Below, in pieces: positions 15,761 to 34,358 of a DNA stretch of 64,000 nucleotides (positions within the stretch are counted from its first letter, which is position 1; each line of letters opens with the position of its first letter). The notes beneath the pieces were generated by a model that ran no database searches, was not told where the DNA came from, and saw only the letters and a program-made list of their open reading frames with translations. The stretch is taken from assembly GCA_034658935.1 (NCBI GenBank), contig JAYEGE010000006.1, positions 24,912 to 88,911 on the forward strand, given 5' to 3'. This DNA is from Patescibacteria group bacterium. Lineage in GTDB: Bacteria > Patescibacteriota > Minisyncoccia > Phycocordibacterales > JACOZG01. Made by a program: the position numbers and the translations under genes.

Positions 15761-15895
15761 ATGTCACAAACGTACCAACCTAAACGACGAAAGCGCCAAA
15801 CTACTCATGGTTTTTTGGTCCGTCAGGCTAAACCAGGCGGACGGCGGGTAATTCAAGCTAGAAGGCGCAAAGGACGGGCGCGATTAGCGGTCTAG
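15761..15895 (+). CDS. rpmH: 50S ribosomal protein L34
   Basis: 44-aa [47 protein letters not shown], matching the L34 pattern. It sits immediately upstream of rnpA and is below the ORF-track length cutoff. Confidence 0.85.
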
Positions 15896-15901
15896 AGGCT
15901 T

Positions 15902-16252: not shown

Positions 16253-16255
16253 AGA

Positions 16256-16999: not shown

Positions 17000-18233
17000 T
17001 TAAGAAAAGATTCTCCTCTTTAGCATCGAGGAAGAGCTTGGTCGCATCTAAAGTGCGGCCCAGGTTGGCTAGTTCTGGGTTGTAGATAATCTCTGTTTTC
17101 CCTGAGTCTGTATCAATTTTCCAAATATTATCAGTGAAGCTAAACTCGCCTCTATACCAACCGTCGGGAAGAGAGCCGAGTGGCAAGCGAACTGGCACGC
17201 CACAATAGATGGTGACATTATCGCTGCTCCAAACACATTTCTCAGCTAGGGTATTAACTAGTAAACGTTTGAAAAGGTTTTCGCTAATAGGGTAAACGCC
17301 GAAGGCTAAACCATCACGAGTATTGCCACTATAGAGAACCTGTCGGCCATTGGGGCTTAATAAAGTAGACAAGCCGGGCACGCGATTGAAAACTAGCTGC
17401 TCGGTTTTAGTTTGTGTATTAATGGTGTAAAGCAAGCTGTCGAGATTGCTGGCAGTCTTAGTTTGTAATGCCAGCAATTCTTCGTTGGGCCAACTGATCA
17501 GCCATTCACTGAGCGGAGAAGAAAAGATTTCTACTTTTCCAGTCCCATCCCAATTAGCTAAGTAGCCAGTTGTGTTGTTTCTGCCGTCCTCAAGGTAAAA
17601 AATCCTGTCCTTTTGAGGCGAGGTGGCAATTTGGGTAATATTGGGGCTAAGAAAACTACCTTCCAATTCGCCTAGGTCGTTAATTGTGCCTGAATCTAGG
17701 CCGATTAAGGCGGCGCTAAAGTTTTGTAGTCTATTGTCGGTTTGGTATCTGGCGATTATTTGGATGGTCGTACTGGCATTATTTGTAGTCTCGCCGATCA
17801 ATAATTCTTCTACCTTAGGAATAGTGGTGTTACTCAATTGGCGTGAGGACAAAAGATCATCAGGACGGACGCCGAACAGATGGCCCCGTGCCTTGTCCAT
17901 ATAGATGACCATTGAGCTGCTGGCGTTGCCCACTAGGCTAGCCCCGGCGACCGGGCCAGAGGAGATTTTATTGAAGCCAGAAGCGAGACTTAGGTTGGGG
18001 TCGCCGGTGGTTCCTGTGCCGTCAGGTTGAGTTCCAGTTCCTGTGGGGCCTGTGATATCTGTGCCAGTTCCGGCACCAAGAGGTTGCCCACTAGGGAAGA
18101 AGGAGCCATTATCCGTATCGAGGGAGCTATCCCCTACTCCGCCGTCTTCAGGTGCTTGGCTGCCTCGCCACCAAATCCAAATGCCGCCAAGGACAACTAA
18201 GATAATTAAAACAATGATGATTATTTTTCTCAT
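16947..18233 (-). CDS. hypothetical membrane-anchored protein with Gly/Thr-rich linker
   Basis: 428 aa with an N-terminal TM, then GTGTDITGPTGTGTQPDGTGTTGDP low-complexity and a beta-rich C-terminal domain. It is the first gene of the T4SS-like minus-strand cluster. Confidence 0.55.
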   Translation of the reverse strand: MRKIIIIVLIILVVLGGIWIWWRGSQAPEDGGVGDSSLDTDNGSFFPSGQPLGAGTGTDITGPTGTGTQPDGTGTTGDPNLSLASGFNKISSGPVAGASLVGNASSSMVIYMDKARGHLFGVRPDDLLSSRQLSNTTIPKVEELLIGETTNNASTTIQIIARYQTDNRLQNFSAALIGLDSGTINDLGELEGSFLSPNITQIATSPQKDRIFYLEDGRNNTTGYLANWDGTGKVEIFSSPLSEWLISWPNEELLALQTKTASNLDSLLYTINTQTKTEQLVFNRVPGLSTLLSPNGRQVLYSGNTRDGLAFGVYPISENLFKRLLVNTLAEKCVWSSDNVTIYCGVPVRLPLGSLPDGWYRGEFSFTDNIWKIDTDSGKTEIIYNPELANLGRTLDATKLFLDAKEENLFLINKTDQELWALDLGAAF

Positions 18234-18595
18234 GATGATGATCCACCAAAAATATTAGAAAGTTTTACTAGGTCGGGGTTAATCTCATTTAAGATTAGCC
18301 AGGCGGCTAACAGTAATATTAGGCCCCAAACGGCCGACTTCATTTTACCCGTACCATTGCTTTTGCCGCTAGGTAATTCGCTCATCATATGAAGGAGGCC
18401 TCCGTAAGCGAATTGGACTACGGCGATAGCGGCAGCTAGACCTAGAACAACCGTGAAAGCGGGGCCGAGATACTTCTCAATGCCAGAGACTTCATTGCCT
18501 AACCCAGGAATTGTTTCTAGTAATTGCACGCTATCTGCCGCTAGGGCCTGGGCAATAAATTTTTTGGCTACCAGCCAATCCATTAGAGTATTCAT
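18230..18595 (-). CDS. putative VirB2/TrbC-like pilin-type protein
   Basis: 121 aa with two hydrophobic helices separated by a short loop. Size and topology fit T4SS pilin subunits; the call is topological only. Confidence 0.4.
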   Translation of the reverse strand: MNTLMDWLVAKKFIAQALAADSVQLLETIPGLGNEVSGIEKYLGPAFTVVLGLAAAIAVVQFAYGGLLHMMSELPSGKSNGTGKMKSAVWGLILLLAAWLILNEINPDLVKLSNIFGGSSS

Positions 18596-19347
18596 TAGAA
18601 GTCGAAATTTGGTTGGTTAAATTGGATACTCAATTTAGCTGTAGTTTCCTGGAGTAATTTATCCAGAGCCTTGGCCGCGAGTCTAAGTTCGTTGCTCCCA
18701 CTCCTGCCTTCTGGGGCGATCAATGTTACTTGCCACGGCTTATTTTGGTCGAGAATGATTGGTTCGCCGTTTAGGGACCAGGAAAATTGCACTCGATGAC
18801 CGAGCACGTCGGGATGAGAGAAGAAAAATGGCTCAGCACTTAGAGTAATCTCTGGTCGAGTCAAATTGATTATGCCCGTCCTAGCCCGATGACGTGCTAG
18901 GCCGGTTGAGGGCTTGTCTTCGTAGATCATTAGACGAGGCTCAATTACTGGAATACTTGTTTCCTTACTAAGTAATTCCCCATTGGGGCTAGTGACGGTC
19001 ACTTTGATTTGGTGGGCCAAGCCTTCAGCCCCAGTGGTGAAGGTCATTTGGCGCTCACCTGCCCCAGAAACACTGCTTATTCTCCGGCCGTCCTTTTCCC
19101 ACTTGAATAACAAATCATTATGGCTGATTTGGTTACCCTGACTATTGTAGAATTCAGTATCAGCCACAATGATGACCTTGCTTTTGGTGCTGGCGGCACT
19201 ATGACCACGATAAAGGGGTGGTGTGTAAGTCTCAGCCTCCCAAAGCAGGTCTACTCTATTAGTAGTTTGGGCAGTGGCTAGTCCGCAACTTAGGGTAACC
19301 CCTAGGGCTAAGACGAGTGTTAGAATAATATTGAAACGATAACTCAT
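18595..19347 (-). CDS. hypothetical secreted protein
   Basis: 250 aa with signal peptide MSYRFNIILTLVLALGVTLSCGLATA; no known motifs. Confidence 0.55.
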   Translation of the reverse strand: MSYRFNIILTLVLALGVTLSCGLATAQTTNRVDLLWEAETYTPPLYRGHSAASTKSKVIIVADTEFYNSQGNQISHNDLLFKWEKDGRRISSVSGAGERQMTFTTGAEGLAHQIKVTVTSPNGELLSKETSIPVIEPRLMIYEDKPSTGLARHRARTGIINLTRPEITLSAEPFFFSHPDVLGHRVQFSWSLNGEPIILDQNKPWQVTLIAPEGRSGSNELRLAAKALDKLLQETTAKLSIQFNQPNFDF

Positions 19348-19851
19348 TTATTTCTTGGCCAGCTTCTTAGTTGGCAATTTGATGCCCGATTTCTCTTCAA
19401 ATCTTACTATAACTATAGTGATAATCATAGCGAGCGTGAGTGATGGTATGACGCTTACAGCCGGTATTACCTCAATGATCAAACTAATGATTGGCGCCGC
19501 TAATCGGCGCATATTCAAGAGACCAACTCCTAAGATATATAACCAGAGGCCGAAGATTATCCAGGCGGTCGGGGCAACAATTATATTTACTATTGGGATC
19601 AGGCTAATAAGATCGAGGACAAGGGCAACCACGATCAAGAATGCGGCTGATAGCCAACTAATTTTGGGTGCGGCTTGAGATTCTCCAGCCCCTTTCTTTG
19701 CTGCCGGAGCTCCCTTTTTGGCCAGTCTGCCTCCCTGCTTTAGCCGACCAACTGGTCTTCCGCCAGCCGGACCCGGCCTCTCTGGAGCCTGTTTAGCTCT
19801 CCTATTAAGCACTTGGGCTACTTCGCCTCCGACTTTAGGTGATGGATCCAT
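19348..19851 (-). CDS. hypothetical polytopic membrane protein
   Basis: 167 aa with a basic N-terminal region and 3-4 predicted TM helices, next to the VirB4-like ATPase. Confidence 0.5.
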   Translation of the reverse strand: MDPSPKVGGEVAQVLNRRAKQAPERPGPAGGRPVGRLKQGGRLAKKGAPAAKKGAGESQAAPKISWLSAAFLIVVALVLDLISLIPIVNIIVAPTAWIIFGLWLYILGVGLLNMRRLAAPIISLIIEVIPAVSVIPSLTLAMIITIVIVRFEEKSGIKLPTKKLAKK

Positions 19852-19863
19852 ACGATTTTATGT

Positions 19864-21684
19864 CTATTTCTCGGTCCCTTCTTCCAGCTCTTGCTTGGCC
19901 TTCTTGATTGCCAGGAGTTGAGAAGGATCAGAAGTGATGATTTGGTCTTCGGTATAGGAGGCGATGATCTTGATGGCCACGTGCTTGAGGCCGGCGAAGA
20001 AGATGCCCTCCCCTACTCCTGACTCTAATAGTAGGTATTTCTCCTCGTCGGTTAATTGGAAAGTTCTTTGAACTACATCAATCGAGGCCGGCGATTGTTT
20101 GAGTAGAAGTTGCATAGAGGAATTGGTGATAATCGGCAAGCCATATTCAGATTTTAAGAAGTCGCTAATATCTTGGGTGATTGTGGAGACGCCAAGAAAA
20201 TATTTACGACCACGTTTAACTAGAGAGAAAAGGAATGAAGCGGTGTCGGGTGATTTCATCATCCACCAAGCCTCGTCGATTATTAGGAGTCGTTTCTTTA
20301 GATTACGCCTAATCGAGTTCCAAATATTATGCATTACAATATACATGGCAACGGGTTTGAGCTCATCCTCCATATCGCGAACCGAGAAGACAACGAACTT
20401 CTTATTGATGTCTACATTGGTTGGCTTGTTGATGAAACCTGCCCAGGTGCCGCGGGTGTACTTCAATAATCTTTGAGCTAAAGATTCTCCACCCTCCATT
20501 CCCACTAGGACTAACTCTAGGTCAGAGAGAAGTGGGGCTGGTTTGTTGGTGAAATCAGAGTCGGCGGTGATGTCTTTGAGGGCGTAAGTTTCAGTAATGG
20601 CGCTGTCGATGATGGCATCCTCCTCAGGCGTGAGGCCACCAAGCATTAATCTAAAGAGTCCGACTAGATTGATGATGTTGGAGCGCAATACGTCGGCCGG
20701 CGACTCGTCTTCGCGGGGGAAAGGTAGGTCGAAAGGATTGATGTGGTGTTCACTTGTTAAAGAGATATTGAAATAGCGTCCGCCCACTGCTTTAGCCAAG
20801 AATTCATACTCTCGTTCGGGATCAATAACGATGATGTCGGAGCCAAACATCAGGCTCCGCAAGATTTCTAATTTAGTAGCGTAAGACTTGCCAGAACCAG
20901 ATTGGGCAAATACTACTGAGTTGTAGTTTTCTAGGCTGAAGCGGTCAAAAAGGACCAAGGAGGAGTTGTGGCGATTGATACCATGGAGGATGCCTTTATT
21001 TGAAGTAAGGTCGAAGGAGACGAAGGGGAAAATGGAGGATAGAGGAGTAGAATTAAGCTTATAATTAACTCCTAATAGGTCGGTGGCTATTGGTAGGACA
21101 CTCTTGAAGCCCTCGGCTTGCTGGAAGAGGGCGGGCTTAATATAGACCAATTTAGCGTCTAGAATGCCCTTAATCTCATTCTCGATACGATCGAGCTCGT
21201 CTGCGCTGTCGCCATAGATGGTGACGTAAACACCAACGTCGAAAATTTTTTCTCGGGCTTGTTGGAGACTGTCACGTAGAGCCTCGATGTCAGCATAGGC
21301 GGTATCAAGAATCGGGTCGCGGACTAGACCCTTCTTTTCTTTAATATTGATTTGGCTTTGTACCTCAGCCACTTTCTTCTCTAATTGCCTTAAAGCTAAG
21401 GCGGAATTGATTGGGTGAATAAGGATGGAGACGTCGAAAATCTTGTCGAGATTGATCACTGGCGAGAACCAGTCTCCACTTAGGAAGCGTGGATAGGAGA
21501 TAATATAGAAGGTGCGGGCTATTTTATCGCCCAAATTAAGCATTCGTGGCGTAACCCGTAATGCCGATGGAGCGATAATATCGCGGAATTCTAACACCCC
21601 CATTTGGTAGATGTCTTGAGGGTAAACAGGTGTTGTCACCGCTTCCTCCTTATCTTTTTTTCCTAATAAGCCAAATAAAGCCAT
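19864..21684 (-). CDS. VirB4/TraE-like type IV secretion ATPase (main part)
   Basis: 606 aa with Walker A SGSGKSY, Walker B IIDEAWW, and an N-terminal region ARTFYIISYPRFLSGDWFSPVINL typical of VirB4 homologues from Gram-positive conjugation systems. Confidence 0.85.
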   Translation of the reverse strand: MALFGLLGKKDKEEAVTTPVYPQDIYQMGVLEFRDIIAPSALRVTPRMLNLGDKIARTFYIISYPRFLSGDWFSPVINLDKIFDVSILIHPINSALALRQLEKKVAEVQSQINIKEKKGLVRDPILDTAYADIEALRDSLQQAREKIFDVGVYVTIYGDSADELDRIENEIKGILDAKLVYIKPALFQQAEGFKSVLPIATDLLGVNYKLNSTPLSSIFPFVSFDLTSNKGILHGINRHNSSLVLFDRFSLENYNSVVFAQSGSGKSYATKLEILRSLMFGSDIIVIDPEREYEFLAKAVGGRYFNISLTSEHHINPFDLPFPREDESPADVLRSNIINLVGLFRLMLGGLTPEEDAIIDSAITETYALKDITADSDFTNKPAPLLSDLELVLVGMEGGESLAQRLLKYTRGTWAGFINKPTNVDINKKFVVFSVRDMEDELKPVAMYIVMHNIWNSIRRNLKKRLLIIDEAWWMMKSPDTASFLFSLVKRGRKYFLGVSTITQDISDFLKSEYGLPIITNSSMQLLLKQSPASIDVVQRTFQLTDEEKYLLLESGVGEGIFFAGLKHVAIKIIASYTEDQIITSDPSQLLAIKKAKQELEEGTEK

Positions 21685-21686
21685 AA

Positions 21687-22349
21687 TTAAATTGATGGTA
21701 CTTCTGATTCTCCCGGATTAAAGATTTTGAAATAAACCTCAACCAATTCTTCGGTACCCAATTGGACTGTCCGTAGGCCCATACTACCAAAGCCCTGTTC
21801 GACAACTGCACTACGTTGCTCAAGCTGCATTCGACGTTCTTCGAAGTCCTTACTCTGCTCGCTGTCAGCCCCCTCTTTCTTCTTAGTTGGTAAGATCCAA
21901 CTGATTATTCCTTTGCGGCCCCCGCCTTCCCCAATGATCGGTGGGCTATAAGGGATAACCACGAAGAAACTCTTAGACATGATCTCTGTTGACTCGGTAA
22001 ATTTACGGATAAACTCGATATACTCTCGAGTCTGGATCTTCATTAGGTCATTAGTTTGTTCAGTCAAGCGCTCCTCTAAGGTCCGTAGATAAGGACGGAT
22101 ATCAAGGCGGCGCGACTGGACAAAAATTTGCAGGCTGAAGTCTAGGGAGTTAAGGAAATTTTGGAATTGCAACAAGATGGCGGTTTGCTCGTCCGTTGAT
22201 TTTAGAGCGAAGTTGATTGAGGAGACCATTAAGAGCATTCGTAGGGAACCGTCCTTCAAGATAACAACGCCATCGCGGATTTCTTTGATGGGTACGAAAT
22301 CTTGTGCCGCTCTCGCTGGTTTACCTGATTTAATAGTGCTATCAGCCAT
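21687..22349 (-). CDS. VirB4 N-terminal-domain-like protein (separate ORF)
   Basis: 220 aa. DFVPIKEIRDGVVILKDGSLRMLLMVSSINFALKSTDEQ resembles the N-terminus of conjugative VirB4-family ATPases. Its stop lies 2 nt before the ATG of the 606-aa ATPase. Confidence 0.55.
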   Translation of the reverse strand: MADSTIKSGKPARAAQDFVPIKEIRDGVVILKDGSLRMLLMVSSINFALKSTDEQTAILLQFQNFLNSLDFSLQIFVQSRRLDIRPYLRTLEERLTEQTNDLMKIQTREYIEFIRKFTESTEIMSKSFFVVIPYSPPIIGEGGGRKGIISWILPTKKKEGADSEQSKDFEERRMQLEQRSAVVEQGFGSMGLRTVQLGTEELVEVYFKIFNPGESEVPSI

Positions 22350-22386
22350 GCTTTTTATTTTAGCATCTTTTATTAGATGCCCGGTA

Positions 22387-22794
22387 TTATCTAATGGTTT
22401 CTTTAACGTCTAGGCTCCAGGCTAGGTCCTTCAATTTGCTTTGTGAGAGACGAGGGACTTGGACTCCTTTTTTAGTTGAGTCTGCTTGCTCGGCCTCAGT
22501 ATTGGTCTCAGGCGCTTGGTGGCGCCAGATGAATAGCTTGCCCGACATAAAGTAACGGAGGGCCGACTCCATTACTAAGATGAAGGATCTATTGTTGATC
22601 CTATAGAAGGCTAAGGCTAGGGCCAGAGCGGCGATTGGTGCCATTAATATAATAGCTAGTGGTTTGAAAGATATCAGGGACCAGATAAGGAAGCATGTTC
22701 CTCCTCCACCGGCCAGGTAGGCAAATTGTTTGAAGGTTAGGGGGCCGAAAATTTTGTCTTCGACCTCAATAAATTGTGGTACCTGGAAATTCAT
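22387..22794 (-). CDS. PrgI/VirB3-like small membrane protein
   Basis: 135 aa. MNFQVPQFIEVEDKIFGPLTFKQFAYLAGGGG followed by two TM helices matches the PrgI-family (VirB3 analogue) pattern. Confidence 0.6.
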   Translation of the reverse strand: MNFQVPQFIEVEDKIFGPLTFKQFAYLAGGGGTCFLIWSLISFKPLAIILMAPIAALALALAFYRINNRSFILVMESALRYFMSGKLFIWRHQAPETNTEAEQADSTKKGVQVPRLSQSKLKDLAWSLDVKETIR

Positions 22795-22795
22795 T

Positions 22796-23674
22796 TTAAT
22801 TGGTTGGTTCTCTATAGGGATCTACGTGTTTGGGCGCAGTATCGACTGGTAGAGATTCAATCGGGGAACCAAAGTTCTTTTTAGTGGCGATCTCCACTCG
22901 CGGTAATTTATAATGACCGCCTAATTTTTGTTCAAACATATTGGGCTGACCGGCCTCGCCACTCGGTGCGGTCTTTTTTGCTCCACCTTCGGGGGCGACG
23001 GGTAGGTTGTTTGGTGGCGCGGCCGTGCTTAGCTCACTTAAGTCGGGTTTCTCAACGTCGCGCATAGCTATCCGTATGGGGAGGAAGATCTGCTTATTAA
23101 TTTCTTCGCTGATCTTAGTTGCTGTTTCCATATCTATGCCTAAACTAGTCTGCAATTGCTTAGGGAATTGGGTGGCGGTAGTTTGCCCAAGAATAACTTT
23201 GGTAGCTTCTTCGTTTAATTTCCCCATCTGATCGATATGGAGATTGTGTTGTTGGGCGATGAACATTGTCTTTGCCTCGGTATCCATGGAAGATAGTACC
23301 TCGCGAATACTCGTAGGCAAGGTAGAGTAACGGTCGTTGATTTTCTGCTCTCGAGCCTGTTGTTCAGTGTTGAGCTTTAGGATTGTTTCTTCAACATCTC
23401 GGAAGACTCTCTCTCGGACGCCGTTTATTAGTTGATCGGTAGTTGGTAAATTAATTGCCTTCTTGATATTGCTACCGAAATCATTTAGTTCTTCTAAACC
23501 AAAGAGAACTAGAGCGACCTCTATCTTTAGATCGTGTATTTGCCCACTATCTAATTGGTATCGGCGACCGATTTCAATTAGCTTATCTTCCCAATTATCA
23601 TGCCGAATAAAGTCCTGCAGGCGTGAAGGCAGGTATGGAAGCTCGGCAGCAAATTGTTTGATTATTTCATCCAT
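22796..23674 (-). CDS. hypothetical protein
   Basis: 292 aa, largely alpha-helical and charged, with a Pro-rich C-terminal region; located within the T4SS-like cluster. Confidence 0.5.
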   Translation of the reverse strand: MDEIIKQFAAELPYLPSRLQDFIRHDNWEDKLIEIGRRYQLDSGQIHDLKIEVALVLFGLEELNDFGSNIKKAINLPTTDQLINGVRERVFRDVEETILKLNTEQQAREQKINDRYSTLPTSIREVLSSMDTEAKTMFIAQQHNLHIDQMGKLNEEATKVILGQTTATQFPKQLQTSLGIDMETATKISEEINKQIFLPIRIAMRDVEKPDLSELSTAAPPNNLPVAPEGGAKKTAPSGEAGQPNMFEQKLGGHYKLPRVEIATKKNFGSPIESLPVDTAPKHVDPYREPTN

Positions 23675-23684
23675 AGTATTTTAA

Positions 23685-26051
23685 TTATGACGCCTCACCA
23701 CCTGCAGGCGCTCTCCCTTCTCCACCTTCGCTACTACCTCCACTGGTCCTGTCGCTCTTTTCTTGACCCTTCTTGAAATCCGACAATAATTTGGCCATTT
23801 TCTTCGCCTCTTTGTTTCCCTTGGATTCTCTAGCGTCGTCTCTGACTTTCTTCGCCATGGCTTTGCGCGTTTTCTTGGTATTAAAGGTTGCTAAGGTATA
23901 GAGGAGGCCCCCCTCTTCCAGCCTCTTGGCGTATGCCTCCTTACGCTCTATCCGCGCCTTTGTTGGGGCCTCTTCCGCCTCTTTTTTGGCGGTTTTTAAT
24001 TTAGCCTCGGCTTGTCGGACGCGCTCCTCATAGTTGCCAATTGTATTTCGTGCTTGTCTTGCTTTGACGGTCGAGGAATTTGGATTAGTGGCGAATTCCT
24101 CGATTCTCTCTAGATCGGCTTTCCTAGCAGTAACTTCACGTGCCGCCTCCTCTCGCCTCTGTACAGCCGCCGTGGTGGCCGCTTCCATTGCGGCTTTGTC
24201 CTTATCGCCCAGGACTTCATCACTGAATTTCTGTGCCTTCTCAGCCTTTTTCTTGACGCCCCCAGTATAACCACCCTTGCCTCCGGCTTTGCCTAGGTCC
24301 AGCCCAGTATGCTTACCTGCCGCTTTACCAAGTTTGCCGCCGAGTTTAGTGGCTCGAACATCGAAGCTGGCACCCGATGTTTTCTTAGAGACCTTAAGAG
24401 TTTGTCTCGCAGCCCAACCACCAAAGCCTCCCTGCTCCTCTCTCCTCTTGAGTCTATCTGAGTCACTCAATCTGGTAGCTACTCGGCCGATGGTGTTGCG
24501 TCCAGCAAGGGCCGCGCCACCAAGTACTGCTGCTCCAGTAGCGACCCCCGCTACTTTCATGGCGGAACCAGCAGTTGCCCCACCAAGTTTTTTGGCGGCT
24601 ATGAGAGATCCGAACATAAAGCCGATGATTAATAATTGGTAGACAATTTGGTTTACCCAACCACCATCGGCTCCGACAGCGGTCCTTGTTGTTGGACCCA
24701 GTAATTCAAAGGTTACGAAGATAAAGAACAAAAAGAAGGGGGCCAAGAAGGCTTCGCTGAGTAATTTGCGTAGCCACTTATCCCAATGTTTTCGCATTTC
24801 AGGTATAGCGTAAGCGGCGAAGGCCGCAGGAGAAAGGATCATCAAGACTATTAGGGTTATCGCCCTGATGAGAAGAATCACTGCTCCGGCTATTAGGACG
24901 AAGGTCGCGAGTAGTATTAGGACAAAGGCTCCAGCAAAATTTATGACAACCTGTTTGAACGATAATTGAGTTTTTTCCTCGGGAGCAGATGCGTTAGTCT
25001 GATCTTTTGGTGTAAATGCGTTATCAAGCTTCAGGCGATTGTAAAATTCCCCGGAGATGCCCCATTCAGTGACGCCCTCACTGGTTTTACTGACTCGGTC
25101 ATAAAATTGAACAGCTAAGATATTGGAGACGTCGATTATTACTCTGGTGAAAAACAAGCTGAAATTGATCAGCAGGGCAATCAAGACGACATTCTTTATT
25201 AGCCCCCCACTTTCCCCCTCTTTTACCTGCAGGATGGTGCGGATGGCAACGAAGAGGAGGATAAATATAAAGACGACATTTGCTAGGTTTCTTAACACAC
25301 TCCATACTGCTCGGATTGCCGGGATGTTGCCTAACCCCACAGAGCCCTCAGCAGCAGCTCCAGTGACCCCATTAGAGGAGGCATTAGCTCCAAAGTCTCT
25401 GATTGTAACGTCTAGTATGATGTCGAAGGCTTTGCCAGCCAGCCACATTAACCAGCTGAGTATCCAAAGTATCCAGTTCAGGGTGGCTGCCAAGAGATCG
25501 ATAGCACATTGCCCGAGATTGCTAAGACCACATTTTCCACCTCCCGATTCTTCTCCTGTTCCCCTAATCGCTTTTTGTTTTTGGTTAAGGCGCCCGTTGA
25601 CTAGCTTGTCTCTTAGGTCGTTAGCAGTACCAGTTTGTCTTTCTATAAAACCTGGTGCACTATTTGGGTCTTCGAAGAGAGATCCCGGGAATTTGGTCGC
25701 CTGAGTTATCCGGGCCATAGTGGCGTTGAGCTGATGTCTGAAACGTTCGGGATTGCCAACAGGGAGCTCATTGTTTTGGCTCATTTGTTCTTGCGCGTAA
25801 TCATTCAGTTGTCGCGCACTCATTTCATCTAGTGTCTGTTGCGTATCGCGGTCTTCGGTCGCTATTTGGTTGTCAGTCTCTACCTCAGCCAAATTATCTT
25901 CTGCGGCGTAAGGGTCACCAGGCTCATAGAATTGACCTCTGGCCAATTGAGGATGAGCGAGGAAAGAAGATGCGACCAACAGACACAAACAAATAAAAAT
26001 TAACCCTATTGATCTGCCCCCCGCGTTTCTATTTTCTGGAGAATCCGCCAT
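23685..26051 (-). CDS. VirB6/TrbL-like polytopic membrane protein with long Lys/Ala/Gly-rich C-terminal tail
   Basis: 788 aa with a signal peptide, an extracellular region, about 6 TM helices, then a roughly 300-aa basic low-complexity tail (KK, GGK, AAK repeats). Confidence 0.6.
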   Translation of the reverse strand: MADSPENRNAGGRSIGLIFICLCLLVASSFLAHPQLARGQFYEPGDPYAAEDNLAEVETDNQIATEDRDTQQTLDEMSARQLNDYAQEQMSQNNELPVGNPERFRHQLNATMARITQATKFPGSLFEDPNSAPGFIERQTGTANDLRDKLVNGRLNQKQKAIRGTGEESGGGKCGLSNLGQCAIDLLAATLNWILWILSWLMWLAGKAFDIILDVTIRDFGANASSNGVTGAAAEGSVGLGNIPAIRAVWSVLRNLANVVFIFILLFVAIRTILQVKEGESGGLIKNVVLIALLINFSLFFTRVIIDVSNILAVQFYDRVSKTSEGVTEWGISGEFYNRLKLDNAFTPKDQTNASAPEEKTQLSFKQVVINFAGAFVLILLATFVLIAGAVILLIRAITLIVLMILSPAAFAAYAIPEMRKHWDKWLRKLLSEAFLAPFFLFFIFVTFELLGPTTRTAVGADGGWVNQIVYQLLIIGFMFGSLIAAKKLGGATAGSAMKVAGVATGAAVLGGAALAGRNTIGRVATRLSDSDRLKRREEQGGFGGWAARQTLKVSKKTSGASFDVRATKLGGKLGKAAGKHTGLDLGKAGGKGGYTGGVKKKAEKAQKFSDEVLGDKDKAAMEAATTAAVQRREEAAREVTARKADLERIEEFATNPNSSTVKARQARNTIGNYEERVRQAEAKLKTAKKEAEEAPTKARIERKEAYAKRLEEGGLLYTLATFNTKKTRKAMAKKVRDDARESKGNKEAKKMAKLLSDFKKGQEKSDRTSGGSSEGGEGRAPAGGEAS

Positions 26052-26052
26052 C

Positions 26053-28440
26053 TTAATTGGTTACTGACTGAAGCAAAGTTATGATAAAGTTGATGATCGC
26101 ATTTCGTAAATTCTCTACGGCATCGGGTCCTAAATCATCTCGTAGCAGGTCTTGATTGTTGGCAACAAATTGGTCGGCAAAGTCGGGGATGGTGTGGTTT
26201 ACATCCCATTGGCTCGGAGCCCTGTCCCCTTCGAATAGGTTAGTTATGTCTTGGAAATCAATCAAATCATTGAGAGCGTCTTCTCCTCCTTGAAAGAAAT
26301 CATCGATTAAGTCGTTAAGAAAGTCGTCGAGGTTGTCGGTAAGGGTGTTACCGAAATCCGCTTGCCAACTGCTGGGCCCTTGGCTATTGGTAGTGACGTC
26401 ACTTCCCGGGAAACCTTCTCTGTCTGGGGTAGCTTCTTCGTTCTCCCAGCCGGTGTCTGGGCATGGCTCAGTGCCGGGGCAAGGGTCGCCATCTTCCATT
26501 GGGTTCTCGATCTCTTCTTCGTCGATGAAGCCAGATTCACCCAGCTTCTTATTAATCGCTTGGATTTGTTTGACTAAGTAATCAGCATTGAAGGAAGGGT
26601 CATTGATCGCCAAGTCGAGATAAGCCTTAAGGTAGGCTTGTTGCATTGCCCGCATGGTGGCAGCGTCAGTGATGATCTCTTCTCTCCGACAATGCCCGTT
26701 TTTACTAAAGTCAACACATATTTTGATTCCCAGCCAGCCTTCGTTGGCGATGAGTTCTTCCCTGATATTTTGTTCAGTTACCTCCGTCTTTTGGTCGACT
26801 TCTCGTCTGGTTAGTAGGTAGGCGGTAAATTGATTATTGCCGGCTGTTGGGTCCCAAAAGTCAATATTGTCTCGCAGGGGGTCGTCACTCTCCCCTCTCA
26901 GAAAGGCGTCTCCTCTCTCTTGCCAAGTTTCGGAGGGCCCGACCCTGTCAGCAAGGTTTTGTCGTTGCTGATTTTCTTCGAGGATATCTCTGGCGGACTG
27001 AGCAGCCAATGGGGCTTCATTTTCTATTTCCTCTAAGTCGTCAATAACTACCAGAAAAGCATTTCTAATTTCGTCTAGGACCCTACGACGAAGGTTGGTG
27101 GTATAGAGAGGTGTAGTATTGGTGCCCTCAACATCCGTTGCTGATTTGGGCAAGACATGACCTGCGTTAACTAAGGAGAAATTTTCCCCAGCCGCTTTGT
27201 TTATGCCTCGGGCTCGGTTTTTAAAAGAATCAGGTTGGAGCTTACGGAAATAATTATTAAGGGCGGTGAGTTCACCAAGGATCATGTGCAAGCGGAAACA
27301 AGATTCAGAAAGCAAGTTCTTGTGCTTGAGTTGCTCCTCATAGTCTCGGTCCTCGTTCTCGTTACTCTGCTTAGTTTGTTTGTCTATGTTGCCTAGGATT
27401 TGGTGAGTAGTTGCGTCTGAGACTGGCACGCTATTTATTCCGCCGAGCCCCCCCAGATCTCCACCGCTAAACATCCCACCAAGGAAGTCAGTTAATGTGC
27501 CGTCTGTGAAATTGCTGAGGAGGCCATCAAAGCCATCTTCGATACCAAATCCTTCGAGAATGCTACTGGCGCCCCCGAGCCCAAAATCATCGAGGAGATT
27601 GTTAAAACTGAATCCTTCCTCTCCATCTCCAAGACCAAAGCCTTCGAAGAGGTCATTGAGAAAGCCTCCGTCCTGTTCCTGCTCCTTTTCGCACTTTTTC
27701 CGGTACTGTTTCCGCATGTCCTCTAAGCTTTTTTGATCAACAGCGCCGAAATTACCGCTAGTTCCTCCCCCAAAGATGCCGCCAAGATTTCCGATAGTGG
27801 AGAGGTCGCCTAAGTCGCCTGCTCCAACGATTTCACCAACGCTTCCCAGGGTGCCGGCATTGCCGAGGATCCCGTCTGCATCTCCAAGAATATTTCCGAC
27901 GTCTGCAATACTGCTAATATCTCCGATGTCTCCAAAGTCACCGATACTAAAGTCTCCAAGGATATCCCCAAAATCTCCGAGGAAGCCACCCTCTCCAAGA
28001 GCTCCGACACTCTCAAGAATATCTCCAATATCTCCAATACTGCCGATGTCTCCCACATCTCCAATAAGATCACCGAGGTCTCCAAGGCCACTGATCTCGC
28101 CGAGGTTAATGAAGTCTCCTAGGTCTCCGATGCTATCAATACCTGTGAAGTCCCCCAGATCTCCTAGCACTCCGTCAAGATCTCCAAGGAGATTTCCCAT
28201 GTCACCAAGGTCGTTGATATCTCCCAAATCGCTGAAGATACTACTGAAGTCGTCGAAATTAAAGTCTCCAGTGTCGCCGAGATCGGTTAGAAGGTCCCCA
28301 AGATCTCCAAGACTGGTGATGTCTCCGAAATTATCGAAAGAGAATTGAGCAGAAGCGCGTTGTGGCACCAGGCTGGCCGCTGTCACCAGGAGCCCTATTG
28401 CTAACCCGCTGGTGATAAATTTTTTCAATAAGGTTTTCAT
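26053..28440 (-). CDS. hypothetical secreted Gly-Asp repeat protein
   Basis: 795 aa with signal peptide MKTLLKKFITSGLAIGLLVTAASLVPQRASA. The N-terminal roughly 230 aa consist of about 40 degenerate (L/I)GD(L/I/F)GD units, followed by an acidic non-repetitive C-terminal domain. Confidence 0.6.
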   Translation of the reverse strand: MKTLLKKFITSGLAIGLLVTAASLVPQRASAQFSFDNFGDITSLGDLGDLLTDLGDTGDFNFDDFSSIFSDLGDINDLGDMGNLLGDLDGVLGDLGDFTGIDSIGDLGDFINLGEISGLGDLGDLIGDVGDIGSIGDIGDILESVGALGEGGFLGDFGDILGDFSIGDFGDIGDISSIADVGNILGDADGILGNAGTLGSVGEIVGAGDLGDLSTIGNLGGIFGGGTSGNFGAVDQKSLEDMRKQYRKKCEKEQEQDGGFLNDLFEGFGLGDGEEGFSFNNLLDDFGLGGASSILEGFGIEDGFDGLLSNFTDGTLTDFLGGMFSGGDLGGLGGINSVPVSDATTHQILGNIDKQTKQSNENEDRDYEEQLKHKNLLSESCFRLHMILGELTALNNYFRKLQPDSFKNRARGINKAAGENFSLVNAGHVLPKSATDVEGTNTTPLYTTNLRRRVLDEIRNAFLVVIDDLEEIENEAPLAAQSARDILEENQQRQNLADRVGPSETWQERGDAFLRGESDDPLRDNIDFWDPTAGNNQFTAYLLTRREVDQKTEVTEQNIREELIANEGWLGIKICVDFSKNGHCRREEIITDAATMRAMQQAYLKAYLDLAINDPSFNADYLVKQIQAINKKLGESGFIDEEEIENPMEDGDPCPGTEPCPDTGWENEEATPDREGFPGSDVTTNSQGPSSWQADFGNTLTDNLDDFLNDLIDDFFQGGEDALNDLIDFQDITNLFEGDRAPSQWDVNHTIPDFADQFVANNQDLLRDDLGPDAVENLRNAIINFIITLLQSVTN

Positions 28441-29285
28441 TATTTATATTGATCGAGATCTATACCTTGGTTATAAAAATAGCGATCCAATTGAGCGATG
28501 GCGCCGGCCACAGCTATCGCCTTGCCGGTATATACTTGGGTACTTTGGAAGGCGAGGACTGGTTCGTTAGGGATGCGAGAGATGTCGCGGATATTATTGG
28601 ATAGATCTTGCAAGCTATTAACCACATCTAGGTGCGTGGCTGCTGCGCTTTGTGGTACTGCGGCGCCACTCATCCTAGTGGCTCGTTGTTGGAAGAAATT
28701 ACTCATGCCAATGAGTTTGGTAATAATTGCTGGGTTACTATTTTCGTCGTAAGCCAAGGCGAGCCCAACAGCATTTTCTCCAGAGAAGGTCCGCATGTTT
28801 CTGAGGAACCCAACGAATACCAGGGTGTAAGCCTCAAGGGTGGCCTGATTAGTAGCCACAATATTGAGATCAGAGATCCGATAGCTGGTCTGACGCTGAG
28901 CTAATTCTTCCTGCTCTAGTTTCAGGAGCGGCTTCGTCCTCTCTTTTAGAGCTTGGCCCAGGGTGGCGGCTGCCCGCTCTTCTGGTCGGATCAATTGATC
29001 CCCTGGTCCAGGCTTGGTGGGGCTACGATCAGCTAGAACCTCGGCTCCATCGACGGTGCCGTCGCCGTCCGTGTCAGGATTATCTAGGTCACTACCCCAA
29101 AGCAGTTCTTCCCAATCGGCCAAGCCGTCGTTGTCACTGTCGCCCTGTTCTTGAAGGTAGAAAGGGACGTCGCTGTCTGTACCTGGGTTTTGTAGGCTTT
29201 TATCGCCGACGTACCATAAGGAAAATAACCCACCAGCAAGGAGGACAACCAGTAGCAAAACTACAATAAAAATTCTTCTCCCCAC
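28440..29285 (-). CDS. hypothetical membrane-anchored protein with DxDxDG calcium-binding-like motifs
   Basis: 281 aa with an N-terminal TM and motifs DSDNDGLADWEE and DTDGDGTVDGAE (thrombospondin type 3 / EF-hand-like). Confidence 0.55.
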   Translation of the reverse strand: MGRRIFIVVLLLVVLLAGGLFSLWYVGDKSLQNPGTDSDVPFYLQEQGDSDNDGLADWEELLWGSDLDNPDTDGDGTVDGAEVLADRSPTKPGPGDQLIRPEERAAATLGQALKERTKPLLKLEQEELAQRQTSYRISDLNIVATNQATLEAYTLVFVGFLRNMRTFSGENAVGLALAYDENSNPAIITKLIGMSNFFQQRATRMSGAAVPQSAAATHLDVVNSLQDLSNNIRDISRIPNEPVLAFQSTQVYTGKAIAVAGAIAQLDRYFYNQGIDLDQYK

Positions 29286-29380: not shown

Positions 29381-29998
29381 ATGTTTAAGTTCTCAGTTTG
29401 GCTTGTAATTGTGTTACTTATTTTGCCTGTTTTGGGTGCGGGGCCGATGGTCTCGGCTAGCATTTTGGATGTTGATAGGCATACGGCTACGCTTCCTCAG
29501 GAACCTGATCCAGAACCTATTCCTGCGGCGCCTGGTGAGTTTTTTAGTAATCGGCAGGAGTTGATCGCTACGTTGACGACAATGATAGGTCTCCTGCAGC
29601 AAATTATAATTTTAAAGCAAGAAAAGACTCCTGCTACTCAAAATACGACTAACCTTAGTCAGAGTAAGGTCGAAGCTGATGATGACGATTCTCTTTCCCT
29701 ACTTTCCACTGCTCCTACTATCACTAGCGTTAGCCCCACCTACGGTCCAAATGGCACCAGGGTTACCTTGCGGGGGGAAGGATTTACTCCCACCGACAAT
29801 ATTATCTTTACTGGTTTTGATCGAGTTGTCGCTAGTTCGGCCAATGGCGAGAGCCTAAGTTTTACTTTAGTTTCACCTTGGCGACCGGACGCAGCTTGGT
29901 CCCCCGGCTCTAACTTCCCTGAAATTAAATTACGTTTTTATGTCCGCAATAGCTGGGGGCAGACGGAAGTGCCAGGAGAATTTGTTTTCGATTTTTAA
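29381..29998 (+). CDS. hypothetical secreted protein with IPT/TIG-like domain
   Basis: 205 aa with a signal peptide; ITSVSPTYGPNGTRVTLRGEGF resembles an IPT/TIG Ig-like fold. Confidence 0.5.
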   Translation: MFKFSVWLVIVLLILPVLGAGPMVSASILDVDRHTATLPQEPDPEPIPAAPGEFFSNRQELIATLTTMIGLLQQIIILKQEKTPATQNTTNLSQSKVEADDDDSLSLLSTAPTITSVSPTYGPNGTRVTLRGEGFTPTDNIIFTGFDRVVASSANGESLSFTLVSPWRPDAAWSPGSNFPEIKLRFYVRNSWGQTEVPGEFVFDF

Positions 29999-30900: not shown

Positions 30901-31643
30901 TGTTCTAAAGTTAATTCTTCAGCTCTCGCCTTGGGTTCAATTTTACAACTCTCTAATACGTCTGTCGATACATTTAAATTGCTAGCAAGTAATTTACGTT
31001 TATGAGCAAAGCCCTTTTTAAGTAAAGTGAAGAATCTTTCTTCCTCTCCCTTGGTAGCCAACCTATCTCGAGAAATCTCATCAATAAGTAATATGGCCGA
31101 ATCAACTTTAGACCTTGGTGTGAAGTGCCTGGCGGCAACTCTGGCAACGAGACGTGGCTGACCAAAAACTTTCACGCTTAAAGACAGTAAACTTTCTTTA
31201 ACTTTGGTGCGGGCGCCGCGGCGAGCCGTGGTTGCGATGCGCTCTGCTACTTCTTGTTGGAGCATTAAGACCACTAACTCGGGTTGTTGCACGGCGGTTA
31301 GTAGCTGGCGCAGGATCTGTCCGGTCAGATAATACGGAATATTGGCCACCACCTTGTATTTACCCTTAAGCGCTTGGTCGACGATATCGCCATGAATGAC
31401 CACTAATTTCCCCGTTTCCACCGCCCCACTGAAGCGATTATTGAGAAAACTGATTAACCGATCGTCTTTTTCCACTGCCACCACCTTCCCCGCCTGTTTC
31501 AATAGGGCCCCAGTTAGGAAACCCCTTCCCGGCCCTATTTCGAGTACGGCGTCTTTGGTTCCCAATTTGGCAGCCTTAATGATTTTGCTCCGAATAGCCG
31601 CGCTATTCAGCCAATTTTGCCCCAATGATTTCTTCGCCCTCAT
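30858..31643 (-). CDS. rsmA: 16S rRNA (adenine1518/1519-N6)-dimethyltransferase
   Basis: 261 aa with SAM-binding motif LEIGPGRGFLT and the NIPY motif (VVANIPYY). Confidence 0.9.
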   Translation of the reverse strand: MRAKKSLGQNWLNSAAIRSKIIKAAKLGTKDAVLEIGPGRGFLTGALLKQAGKVVAVEKDDRLISFLNNRFSGAVETGKLVVIHGDIVDQALKGKYKVVANIPYYLTGQILRQLLTAVQQPELVVLMLQQEVAERIATTARRGARTKVKESLLSLSVKVFGQPRLVARVAARHFTPRSKVDSAILLIDEISRDRLATKGEEERFFTLLKKGFAHKRKLLASNLNVSTDVLESCKIEPKARAEELTLEQWLCLTNFINTQAK

Positions 31644-31674
31644 ACTTCTGTCCCCAATCTGGCCTCCTTATCCC

Positions 31675-31698
31675 ATTTGGACACTTCGTGTCCAAATT
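31675..31698. repeat. REP palindrome TTTGGACACTTCGTGTCCAAAT
   Basis: Perfect palindrome inside the 3-prime end of the RAYT ORF. Confidence 0.9.
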
Positions 31699-31838
31699 TA
31701 TTTTCGACAATATCTTGGAGGGAAGCCTCGGCGAACTCTCGGTATTCTTTGGGGCTCCCGAATTGGCTTAAAATAAGGCTTTTATCGCAGATCGTCCCCG
31801 CGTTATCTCCCAAATACTCACTCCAACTAGTCCGTGCT

Positions 31839-31862
31839 AATTTGGACACTGCGTGTCCAAAT
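31839..31862. repeat. REP palindrome TTTGGACACTGCGTGTCCAAAT
   Basis: Perfect palindrome inside the RAYT ORF. Confidence 0.9.
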
Positions 31863-32344
31863 GAATGGGCTTGATGGTTGAGGTTGATATAGACGCTGAG
31901 ATGCAATAAATACTCATCCGAATCCACATGTTTTGCCTGGAACCCACTTTCCCATAGCCTCCCTTTCCGCTTGTAACGAGCGTTGAAATACTTGCTGTAT
32001 CCCATATTTAGACGTTGCATGAAGCGCTCGATACCTTTTTCGGCAGTTGGTTGAACCAAGAAATGATAATGGTTTGGATTAATGGCGTAAGCTACGAATT
32101 TAACCAATGGTGATTTGGCTCCATTGATAGGTGGATAGCCGAGCTTCTCTAGGCGTTTGTCGATAAAGGGTTTTTCGTAGAGGCTACCAGTGGTTTGTTT
32201 GCTATTGAATTCCCGTAAGGCCAAGAAAAAACGCTCAACATCACTATTATCGAGAAAAACCGACCTTTTCTCTACTCCGCGATTATAAATATGGTAGAAT
32301 TCGCCCTCTACGAATGGTTTTTTCCTCATTGTCGCCATCTTAAC

Positions 32345-32368
32345 ATTTGGACACTGCGTGTCCAAATT
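32345..32368. repeat. REP palindrome TTTGGACACTGCGTGTCCAAAT
   Basis: Perfect palindrome at the 5-prime end of the RAYT ORF. Its translation gives the spurious MDTQCPNV N-terminus. Confidence 0.9.
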
Positions 32369-32375: not shown

Positions 32376-34358
32376 TTAGAAATCGATGCTAATTAAGGGT
32401 GTATTTCGATCGGCGAGGAGGTTATCGTCGATGTCGGCCAGGAAATCCGAGGGGAGATTGACTCGGCGGGAGCCGAAGATGGTTCGGCTCTGGGCGTAAC
32501 TCAAATAAAGCCTCTCGCGAGCGCGAGTGAGAGCGACGTAGAAGAGTCGTCGTTCCTCTTCCCCGTCTCTCTCCTCGTCTTCTCCGAAGCGTACGTAAGG
32601 GAAGAGCCCCTGTTCCATACCAACAATGAACACGTATTTAAATTCTAAGCCTTTGGCGGCGTGGACGGTCATCAATCTGACGCCCGCCTTTCTGCCTGAT
32701 TGCTTTTGATCCAAACTGTCTTGCTCGCTAGTTAGAGAAGCATCGGTTAACATTTGCCAGGTGCCTTCCCCAGGCGGGAATTGGTCGTACTTCAAGGCCA
32801 AGGTGGCTAACTCTCGCAAGTTACCCAAACGCTCCTCCCCTTCTGGCCCATCTTTCTTTAATTCTTCCTCTAAACCAGAATGTTTGATGGCGAATTTAAT
32901 TAAGTCACTTGGTTTTTCTTTTAATGCCGCTTCTTTGATCTCTGCCAGAACTTTGTCGAAGGCTGCTATTTTCACTCGCGTTTTAGCTGGCAAACTTTCA
33001 CTCAAGCCGGCGGCCATCTTCCCTAAAGTAACTTTGCCTATCCCTCGTGGTGGGACATTAATGATCCGCTTCTTACTCTCCCAATCTTCTGGATTTAAGG
33101 CCGCCCTAATCACTGCCAACACGTCCCTAACTTCTTTGCGTTCAAAGAAGCGAGTGCCCAATACTTGATAAGGCAAACCAGCCCTAAGCAGAGCCTCTTC
33201 TAAGATTCGCGATTGGAAATTGGCCCTATAAAGTATAGCTATTTCGCTAGCCTCTGTCTTTTCCTTAAGTAGGCCCTGGATCTCGTTCGCTACCATCGAG
33301 GCCTCTTCTCCTTCATCAATTCCGACCATGAATTGAATCAATTCGCCGTCTGGATTCTTGGTGAAAAGTTTCTTGTCGTGTCGTTGCTGGTTCTTACTTA
33401 TTACTTGGTTGGCGGCGGTTAAGATTGTTTGAGTGGAGCGATAATTTTCTTCTAATAAAATAATTTTTGCCTCCTTATAATCTTTTTCAAAACGCATTAA
33501 GTTCTTGAAGTCTGCTCCGCGCCAACTATAAATAGATTGATCGACATCGCCAACAACACAAATGTTCTGACTCTTGGCTGCTAGTAATTTAGCTAACTCG
33601 TATTGTGCTACGTTAGTGTCTTGATACTCATCAATATGGAGATAGGGCCAACGTCGTTGGTAATACTCGAGGATCTTAGATTCTTTTTGCAATAACTTAA
33701 CCACTTTAAGAAGCAGGTCGTCGAAGTCGAGAGCTTGGCGTTTAGCTAAGGCTTGTTCATAAAGTGGCCAGATTATGGCGGCAATTTTCATTGGCGGCCA
33801 TTGGCCCTTGCTTGCTTTCTCTCTAAAACTATCTGCTGTTACTAAATTACCTTTCTCGCGGCTGATGATTCCCAAAATTCGTCGCGGCTCTACCTCCCTG
33901 CTCTCTATTCCTCGATCCTTCAGGAGCCCCTTAACAATACTCATGGAATCATCCTTATCGGCGATAGAAAAAAAGCGATTCAAGCCTAGGGCCCCGGCGT
34001 TCTCTTTCAAGATATAGGCGCCGAGAGCGTGGAAGGTGCTAACAAAAGGGCTAGCTGGCCCTCTCCTTCCCTCGTCACCCCAGGCTCCCCCCAATAGTTT
34101 GCTGATTCGCTTGCCCATCTCCTTGGCCGCCTTATTGGTGAAAGTAATCGCTAAGATTTTCTCTGGCTCTACTCCACCATCTATTAATTGACCGATCCGA
34201 TAAGTAATCGCCTTAGTCTTACCAGAGCCGGCACCGGCTACGATGAGGAGCGGCCCTTCTTTATGGGTTACTGCTTCCTTTTGGGCTGGATTGAGGCCGC
34301 TTAAATCTATCATTGTCACCAAGTCTAGCATGCTGAGGGCCACTTCTTGGTTATCCAC
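32376..34358 (-). CDS. pcrA: ATP-dependent DNA helicase PcrA/UvrD family
   Basis: 660 aa with Walker A AGAGSGKTKAIT and the UvrD/Rep superfamily 1 helicase motifs. Confidence 0.9.
   Translation of the reverse strand: MDNQEVALSMLDLVTMIDLSGLNPAQKEAVTHKEGPLLIVAGAGSGKTKAITYRIGQLIDGGVEPEKILAITFTNKAAKEMGKRISKLLGGAWGDEGRRGPASPFVSTFHALGAYILKENAGALGLNRFFSIADKDDSMSIVKGLLKDRGIESREVEPRRILGIISREKGNLVTADSFREKASKGQWPPMKIAAIIWPLYEQALAKRQALDFDDLLLKVVKLLQKESKILEYYQRRWPYLHIDEYQDTNVAQYELAKLLAAKSQNICVVGDVDQSIYSWRGADFKNLMRFEKDYKEAKIILLEENYRSTQTILTAANQVISKNQQRHDKKLFTKNPDGELIQFMVGIDEGEEASMVANEIQGLLKEKTEASEIAILYRANFQSRILEEALLRAGLPYQVLGTRFFERKEVRDVLAVIRAALNPEDWESKKRIINVPPRGIGKVTLGKMAAGLSESLPAKTRVKIAAFDKVLAEIKEAALKEKPSDLIKFAIKHSGLEEELKKDGPEGEERLGNLRELATLALKYDQFPPGEGTWQMLTDASLTSEQDSLDQKQSGRKAGVRLMTVHAAKGLEFKYVFIVGMEQGLFPYVRFGEDEERDGEEERRLFYVALTRARERLYLSYAQSRTIFGSRRVNLPSDFLADIDDNLLADRNTPLISIDF

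Follow-up and report, generated by a model that had tools for sequence, protein, structure and literature searches.

What is a long run of Gly-Asp repeats doing in a predicted secreted protein that is encoded next to the channel gene of a bacterial secretion system? The question is raised by a 64,000-nucleotide stretch of DNA from a Patescibacteria group bacterium (contig JAYEGE010000006.1 of assembly GCA_034658935.1; hereafter the window, whose own numbering we use), in which a 795-residue open reading frame (ORF) directly precedes a VirB6-like gene of a type IV secretion system (T4SS). A preliminary description, made from the letters of the DNA, had proposed that the repeats may be a new calcium-binding or filament-forming module. 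Sequence comparison places the protein in a genuine but uncurated family of exoproteins encoded in Patescibacteria T4SS operons, which we define here as the 'DPCPGPGPCP' family. Within that family the array is lineage-specific, and it may form a flexible, polyanionic extension of the protein.

Patescibacteria T4SSs are MPF-FATA-like, with split TrsD and VirB4, VirB2-like pilins, no relaxase and a location near dnaA (PMC12102498, Quinonero-Coronel et al. 2025). The system is essential for the epibiotic growth of S. epibionticum (PMC10633639, Wang et al. 2023; PMC12857230), and no T4SS had earlier been shown to be essential for its carrier bacterium (PMC10633639, PMC12857230). Published inventories of its components report no adhesin or VirB5-like component (PMC12102498, PMC10633639, PMC12857230). 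The T4SS context of the window is already known in this sense; the exoprotein family itself is undescribed.

Anatomy of the protein and its Gly-Asp array

The coding sequence and the parts that we delimited in it are as follows.

26053..28440 (including stop codon), minus strand: coding sequence of the 795-residue predicted secreted protein, with ATG start (ORF list)
28348..28440, minus strand: predicted signal peptide, residues 1-31 (sequence inspection: MKTLLKK, an 18-residue hydrophobic core, then PQRASA/Q)
27736..28344, minus strand: degenerate hydrophobic-Gly-Asp tripeptide array, residues 33-235 (repeat statistics)
27664..27735, minus strand: first conserved element, residues 236-259, KSLEDMRKQYRKKCEKEQEQDGGF, containing Cys250 and predicted to be helical (homolog motif match)
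27436..27663, minus strand: short variable linker, residues 260-335, 76 residues rich in G/F/D/L (composition)
26446..27435, minus strand: conserved family core, residues 336-665 (phmmer, alignment A1, AlphaFold model)
26056..26445, minus strand: acidic, helical C-terminal tail, residues 666-795 (aligned with proteins P0004, P0017 and P0018 only)
27776..28348, plus strand: antisense SPRSP-rich ORF of 190 residues, opposite the repeat array (ORF list)

The ORF is real, as the preliminary description had taken it to be: it begins with ATG, and its product matches the NCBI entry 'MAG: hypothetical protein U9M92_01530 [Patescibacteria group bacterium]' at 100% identity. It forms a singleton cluster from one contig. 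Secretion, also proposed earlier, is consistent with the N terminus, which reads as a Sec-type signal peptide; this region is the sole transmembrane (TM)-like segment of the protein (hydrophobic 19-mer window), and the N termini of homologs resemble it. A motif and hydrophobicity scan of the 795 residues found neither LPXTG (LP.[TSA]G) nor a C-terminal hydrophobic segment, and we rejected an LPXTG-anchored repeat adhesin of the Clf/Sdr or PrgB/PrgC type because the sorting signal and TM segment are absent. The six cysteines lie at positions 250, 381, 575, 584, 654 and 660. The C-terminal tail, which finishes as an amphipathic helix (AIINFIITLLQSV), has the highest single-sequence values of the predicted local distance difference test (pLDDT) in the protein, 50-61. 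The antisense ORF exists, and we agree with the earlier judgement that it is spurious, because homologs, a signal peptide and operon coupling all speak for the sense frame; the antisense ORF is a mirror reading of the GGA-GAT/CTT codons in the repeat.

The array (203 residues) is 25% Gly, 18% Asp and 31% L/I/F/V/M, and its 42 acidic residues, with zero K/R and zero Pro, give a net charge of -42. It holds 25 [LIFVM]GD triplets against 3.5 +/- 1.7 in shuffles of the same composition (maximum 11 in 10,000), so the order of its residues is non-random beyond composition. The density of these triplets is 123 per 1000 residues, compared with 1.9 in the other long ORFs of the window. Autocorrelation of the hydrophobic residues is strongest at lag 3 and then decays (0.52, 0.35 and 0.20 at lags 3, 6 and 9), with no longer period. 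The repeat unit is an irregular, degenerate tripeptide (hydrophobic-G-D) and not a hexapeptide.

The preliminary description had reported a nearly uninterrupted array at 27770-28340 of about 40 (L/I)GD(L/I/F)GD units with a 6-residue period. Its location was borne out, whereas the period has to be revised to three. The figure of about 40 units holds for tripeptides only, because there are 37 xG[DENS] triplets but 11 runs with at least two consecutive triplets. Nor is the array nearly uninterrupted: breaks of 1-15 residues are frequent, the longest in-frame Gly-X-Y run is five triplets, and the DNA is not a clean tandem repeat. At the DNA level, direct-repeat copies are 60-79% identical at spacings that are multiples of 3, Tandem Repeats Finder reports two weak 9-bp arrays only, and codon use is mixed. 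Because the copies are this diverged and the codon use is mixed, the array is not a recent slippage product; it is an old, degenerate protein-level repeat with no obvious phase-variation tract.

A conserved core defines an exoprotein family

An exhaustive phmmer search with residues 341-795 recovered 29 cluster representatives at E<=1e-3. They span roughly 280-1290 residues, the match is C-terminal in those that are full length, and the best non-self match and nearest relative, P0004 (1.7e-56), is 32% identical in the core. Word-index searches with the full protein, its C-terminal part or a profile of alignment A1 were swamped by low-complexity words: apart from the protein itself they yielded P0018 and two compositional matches, P0002 and P0003, and nothing else. 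Only the exhaustive phmmer search brought the family to light. We built alignment A1 from 24 sequences, and used a 5-sequence alignment, A2, to find related loci.

Five residues are invariant in A1: C381, G568, C575, C584 and P659. The first of these lies in a C(T/M)xLK helix, and an NNP motif is also conserved. C575 and C584 are held in the block AEQNAREE..AG.GFLP.R.C-x8-C..W.T.TP, and C654 and C660 in DPCPGPGPCP.SGW (DPCPGxxPCPxxGW). In the window protein the core terminates in the latter motif, DPCPGTEPCPDTGW (residues 652-665, nucleotides 26446-26487), which substantiates the CPG/CPD motif noted earlier. A further motif with a conserved cysteine, R..D...C.AEQ.GG, lies near the N terminus; it corresponds to KSLEDMRKQYRKKCEKEQEQDGGF in the window protein and to KSLEELRKEAEKACKAEQQGGF in P0004 (residues 62-83).

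An AlphaFold model of the core, made with the 24-sequence alignment (pLDDT 69.9; predicted template modelling score 0.51), is mainly helical, with one beta hairpin formed by the Cys575-x8-Cys584 stretch. Foldseek comparison with PDB and BFVD gave nothing significant (no PDB chain at E<1.9), and PDB sequences searched with a profile yielded no match at E<0.68. There are no Pfam or NCBIfam models for the array, the core or the 24-plus family members, and the core has no tblastn match among plasmids. The 795-residue protein has all the features by which we define the family, namely the core cysteines, hairpin and motif, the operon slot described below, and the predicted signal peptide together with the N-proximal motif. 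Since the 29 representatives were found from a single sequence, they probably cover only a small part of the family.

The gene occupies a fixed slot in a T4SS operon

The genes of the operon, all on the minus strand, are listed here in transcription order around the 795-residue gene.

28440-29285, minus strand: 281-residue protein, candidate upstream partner, with an N-terminal TM anchor and TSP3/EF-hand-like DxDxDG motifs (residues 49-83)
23685-26051, minus strand: VirB6-like polytopic membrane protein, 788 residues, seven TM-like segments
22796-23674, minus strand: 292-residue protein (g292), no assigned function
22387-22794, minus strand: PrgI/VirB3, 135 residues (PrgI 4.8e-10)
21687-22349, minus strand: TrsD, 220 residues (1.7e-7)
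19864-21684, minus strand: VirB4, 606 residues (CD1110 family 3.5e-107)
19348-19851, minus strand: small membrane protein, 167 residues (g167)
18595-19347, minus strand: small membrane protein, 250 residues (g250)
18230-18595, minus strand: T4SS_pilin, 121 residues (PF18895 3.3e-8)
16947-18233, minus strand: 428-residue protein, no assigned function

The operon runs from the 281-residue gene to the 428-residue gene and is followed by yidC, dnaA and dnaN. The stop codon of the 281-residue gene overlaps the ATG of the 795-residue gene (TAATG), and the ATG of the VirB6-like gene lies 1 nucleotide past the stop codon of the 795-residue gene (TAA-G-ATG), in agreement with the earlier placement directly upstream of a VirB6-like gene. 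These junctions suggest that the three genes are translationally coupled. Pfam matches of the 281-residue protein to TSP3_bac (7e-4) and EF-hand_1 (0.0097) both fall short of curated cut-offs, and the VirB6-like protein has weak, sub-threshold NCBIfam matches to CD3337/EF1877 and TraJ.

We compared the operon with loci from GTDB genomes and JGI/ENA metagenomes (Patescibacteria, Vogelbacteria, Saccharibacteria, Kaiserbacteria and Parcubacteria metagenome-assembled genomes). The conserved order is TSP3-like, exoprotein family, VirB6-like, g292, PrgI, TrsD, VirB4, g167, g250, pilin. The gene order of the window recurs identically in loci L003, L004, L009, L010, L011 and L013 (the family member of L009 was identified by tblastn) and partially in L005 and L012, and distant versions are present in L006, L007 and L015. 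Wherever a related locus has enough flank (~10 loci), a homolog of the core immediately precedes the VirB6-like gene. Given that it keeps the same slot across loci, the exoprotein is a fixed component of the operon and not a passenger. The 281-residue TSP3-like protein is likely to be its physical partner or anchor, because an ortholog precedes the family member wherever the upstream flank was recovered. As for the suggestion that the protein is a surface, tip or adhesin component of the apparatus, its place in the T4SS locus stands, by the junctions and the synteny, whereas a surface role is plausible only.

In the three distant loci, from Kaiserbacteria/Parcubacteria, the slot holds shorter proteins of 494-637 residues (L006 6910-8394, L007 7518-9431 and L015 6722-8206). 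What these have in common with the family is limited to the GGWDAWLK and G.GF..R.C blocks, and they carry an additional motif, 'NTGF(E/D)G(S/N)PAF'.

We propose that the product of the 795-residue gene would be a Sec-exported, cysteine-stabilised, mainly helical exoprotein, forming a fixed part of a chromosomal T4SS operon of the monoderm type (MPF-FATA-like) in Patescibacteria. It would be translated in tandem with the membrane-anchored TSP3-like protein and the VirB6-like channel protein.

The array is lineage-specific within a modular family

Family members share a layout of signal peptide, short leader (often Pro-rich or of low complexity), Cys-motif helix, variable module, core and variable C-terminal module. 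Among homologs the variable module ranges from 0 to about 640 residues. It consists of G/F/N-rich 'GNFGQL' arrays in P0008, P0010 and P0015 and of LPxxL helical repeats in P0004-7, P0011 and P0012, and it is nearly nil in P0009, P0013, P0014, L004 and L005; in L004 and L005/P0013 the Cys motif runs straight into the core. None of the orthologs has a hydrophobic-G-D array, the density of [LIFVM]GD being at most 5.3 per 1000 residues in all of them.

In the window protein the array occupies the leader, upstream of the Cys motif, and the usual variable module has shrunk to the 76 G/F/D-rich residues of the linker. Because the array sits in the leader, the conserved Cys motif lies at residue 250, compared with about residues 45-115 in homologs, a downstream shift of ~170-200 residues. 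The leader, normally a short stretch from the cleavage site of the signal peptide to the first Cys helix, would have grown to about 200 residues of triplets. Two kinds of C-terminal module occur, an acidic helical tail and an Ig-like extension that has two cysteines. Since the extension replaces the acidic tail in many members, the family varies at both ends. A family that keeps its core (residues 336-665) and exchanges its peripheral modules would account for this layout. The Gly-Asp array matters less than the family, and shows how freely peripheral modules get replaced.

The alternative C-terminal extension, of ~250-350 residues, is present in P0005, P0009, P0010, P0012, P0013 and the L004 protein (7734-9872). 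Its pattern, 'TW..NA..C.A.NDW ... Y.L.C', resembles an Ig-like or adhesin-type beta domain.

What the array may be

The array was compared with known repeat folds. Pfam has no family that matches it even at E<=10, RTX (HemolysinCabind), collagen and hexapeptide repeats included; a motif scan of the array found neither GGxGxD nor DxDxDG; and in a full-length AlphaFold model, made from the single sequence without an alignment, residues 73-235 are coil at pLDDT 24-32. Because of the missing Pfam matches and motifs and the predicted coil, we do not assign the array to the RTX/beta-roll, collagen or hexapeptide repeats. RTX repeats are nonapeptides (GGxGxDxUx, Pfam HemolysinCabind); the array is built of tripeptides. 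A collagen-like triple helix was rejected on the short Gly-X-Y runs, the absence of Pro and the lack of a Pfam Collagen match, and a hexapeptide left-handed beta-helix on the dominant, decaying period of 3 and the lack of a Hexapep match. The beta-roll or beta-solenoid that the preliminary description had suggested looking for is not seen in the model, nor is the kinship to RTX nonapeptides in the family comparison. In essence, the array shows the low complexity, the lack of a predicted regular fold and the absence from orthologous loci that the preliminary description had itself named as telling against its claim. In kind the array is ordinary, an acidic low-complexity repeat in a predicted secreted protein, though in an unusual tripeptide form. 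A literature search for Gly-Asp or GD repeats surfaced only unrelated usages, for example the OmpK36 'GD repeat'.

The reading that we prefer, and to which we give about an even chance, is that the array extends the N terminus of an extracellular T4SS accessory protein as a flexible polyanion. Such an extension would be strongly acidic, would form neither a beta-roll nor a solenoid, and could possibly bind divalent cations. It might act as a spacer, a shield or a low-affinity contact surface at the interface between epibiont and host.

Several observations weigh against this reading. Low confidence in a single-sequence AlphaFold model often stems from causes other than disorder. The mean hydropathy of the array is 0.538 and its net charge 0.207; as the Uversky boundary at this hydropathy is 0.347, the array ranks among 'compact' sequences in a charge-hydropathy plot. 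The array is rather hydrophobic for classic disorder and may adopt a collapsed, self-associating or ion-induced structure, and its far-from-random residue order may point to selection for a structural pattern. In addition, no ortholog of the exoprotein is identifiable in SEML1_0006-0019 of S. epibionticum, the only system with genetic tests, where the supplementary annotation does not correspond one-to-one with the operon.

The alternative that survives best, although we consider it unlikely, is that the array is a functionless, neutral low-complexity expansion, produced by replication slippage and drift in a linker that tolerates changes in length. The equivalent position in homologs is indeed short, variable and of low complexity, and an array that occurs in no ortholog, has no predicted fold and matches no family is what such an expansion would leave. 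Purifying selection is suggested, however, by the way in which the copies have diverged (60-79%) and yet kept the pattern and the exclusion of K/R/P over 203 residues. Patescibacteria genomes are small and streamlined, and this makes 600 nucleotides of useless coding sequence less likely.

It is improbable that the array folds on Ca2+ binding into a beta-roll-like, solenoid-like or filament-forming structure, as a new short-period relative of RTX. The high content of Asp and Gly and a composition that plots as folded by charge and hydropathy would suit such a fold, and the TSP3/EF-hand-like motifs of the upstream partner hint at a Ca-rich extracellular setting. The array nevertheless lacks GGxGxD and DxDxDG motifs and any match to HemolysinCabind or another Pfam family at E<=10. 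Its period of 3, its irregular insertions and the missing longer periodicity leave nothing to set the length of a coil, and the predicted coil and the absence from orthologs also count against the idea. On these grounds the claim of a new calcium-binding or filament-forming repeat was not sustained, and annotation of the array as a Ca-binding RTX-like domain is unwarranted.

Little probability attaches, in our view, to the array being a 'sticker-spacer' cohesive domain, comparable to FG-nucleoporin repeats, that would form a gel or plug at the cell-cell contact. The strong period-3 spacing of L/I/F stickers in a Gly-rich background and the intermediate hydropathy would fit, and FG/GF/LGG motifs are abundant in the linker (residues 260-335) and in the N-modules of P0008, P0010 and P0015. 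Without screening by cations, however, a net charge of -42 and the lack of basic residues would work against self-association, and many orthologs have no such module. Finally, a rigid rod made of a collagen-like triple helix or a polyglycine-II/polyproline-II bundle, which the period of 3 and the Gly at every third position of the regular stretches might evoke, is very improbable in view of the longest Gly-X-Y run of five triplets, the zero Pro content, the lack of a Collagen match in Pfam and the coil in the AlphaFold model.

Relation to known systems

The window operon resembles published Patescibacteria T4SSs in having split TrsD and VirB4, PrgI/VirB3, a VirB6-like protein and a VirB2-like T4SS_pilin, in lacking a relaxase, and in lying beside dnaA, dnaN and yidC. 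It differs from them in the exoprotein: the inventories do not name a large secreted family, and none that matches appears in the text of PMC12102498.

VirB5/TraC minor pilin and pilus-tip proteins of diderm T4SSs are a second point of comparison. Like them, the exoprotein is predicted to be Sec-exported and largely helical (long helices and a small appendage), and in both cases the gene lies immediately upstream of VirB6 in an operon with a VirB2-like pilin. VirB5 has a size of about 220 residues, whereas the core of the window family is larger (330-460 residues), is cysteine-rich and carries huge variable modules. Membership of the VirB5/TrbJ family was rejected, as neither the protein nor 24 members have a Pfam or NCBIfam match and the profile search against PDB sequences turned up nothing at E<0.68.

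RTX/beta-roll nonapeptides share with the array its character of Gly/Asp-rich, acidic tandem repeats of extracellular proteins; the window unit differs in being an irregular tripeptide with no GGxGxD, no Pfam match and no beta-roll in the model. The SD repeats of staphylococcal Clf/Sdr proteins are likewise long, acidic, low-complexity, short-period repeats in secreted surface proteins, and the SD region is regarded as a flexible stalk or spacer. Those repeats lie between a ligand-binding domain and an LPXTG anchor, whereas the window array lies at the N terminus that cleavage of the signal peptide would free, has a hydrophobic residue in every unit and is accompanied by no LPXTG.

Two further proteins, which were the sole non-self matches in the word-index search with the full-length protein, resemble the array in composition.

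L001 10001-12676: P0002, next to DotI/DotH/DotG/DotF/TraQ (a Dot/Icm-like type IVB cluster)
L002 2421-6356: P0003, directly after an Mbov_0395/T4SS_pilin-like conjugal transfer gene

Both are large, lie beside T4SS genes and carry long, acidic, [LI]GD[LIF]-rich arrays, with 19-35 [LIFVM]GD per 1000 residues. They differ from the window protein in their units, a 13-mer LGxLGDLxxLTDx in P0002 and a 10-mer LGDLxxLxxx in P0003, and in their unrelated C-terminal domains. Homology is not established, because the similarity is confined to the low-complexity region. From these two cases of compositional similarity, LGDL-type arrays beside T4SS genes may be a recurrent theme.

A more far-reaching proposal, which we regard as quite unlikely in its entirety, is that the family would be the host-contact subunit of the essential Patescibacteria T4SS, an analogue of VirB5 or of a tip protein. 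Its core would dock to the VirB2-like pilus or to VirB6, its swappable modules would tune host specificity, and LGDL arrays would recur across T4SS classes. The tuning modules would then be the hydrophobic-G-D array in the window protein and GNFGQL, LPxxL or Ig-like modules in other members. Of greater value than the array is the finding that an essential secretion system has, at a VirB5-like position of its operon, a conserved exoprotein family that had not been described. A large, putatively secreted protein with a fixed slot beside VirB6 and hypervariable outer modules is an obvious candidate for a host-facing component, and it gives deletion, localisation and partner-mapping experiments something definite to aim at.

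Neighbouring genes

The whole operon (window 12939-29285) adjoins yidC, dnaA and dnaN and so lies close by the replication origin. Its VirB4 comes in two parts, TrsD (220 residues) and VirB4 (606 residues), and this split and the dnaA-side location match the 2025 survey of Patescibacteria T4SSs. Directly upstream of the operon lies a divergent gene (29381-29998, plus strand) for a 205-residue predicted secreted protein with an IPT/TIG domain, which may be another surface component. An IS200-like Y1 transposase gene (PF01797, 2.4e-10) lies directly downstream of a UvrD-type helicase gene, ~2.4 kb from the T4SS operon.

31640-32365, minus strand: IS200-like Y1 transposase
32376-34358, minus strand: UvrD-type helicase

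Elsewhere in the window, at 3921-5618 (plus strand), a T2SSE/PilB-type ATPase (PF00437, 1.7e-114) fits the type IV pilus machinery of Patescibacteria.

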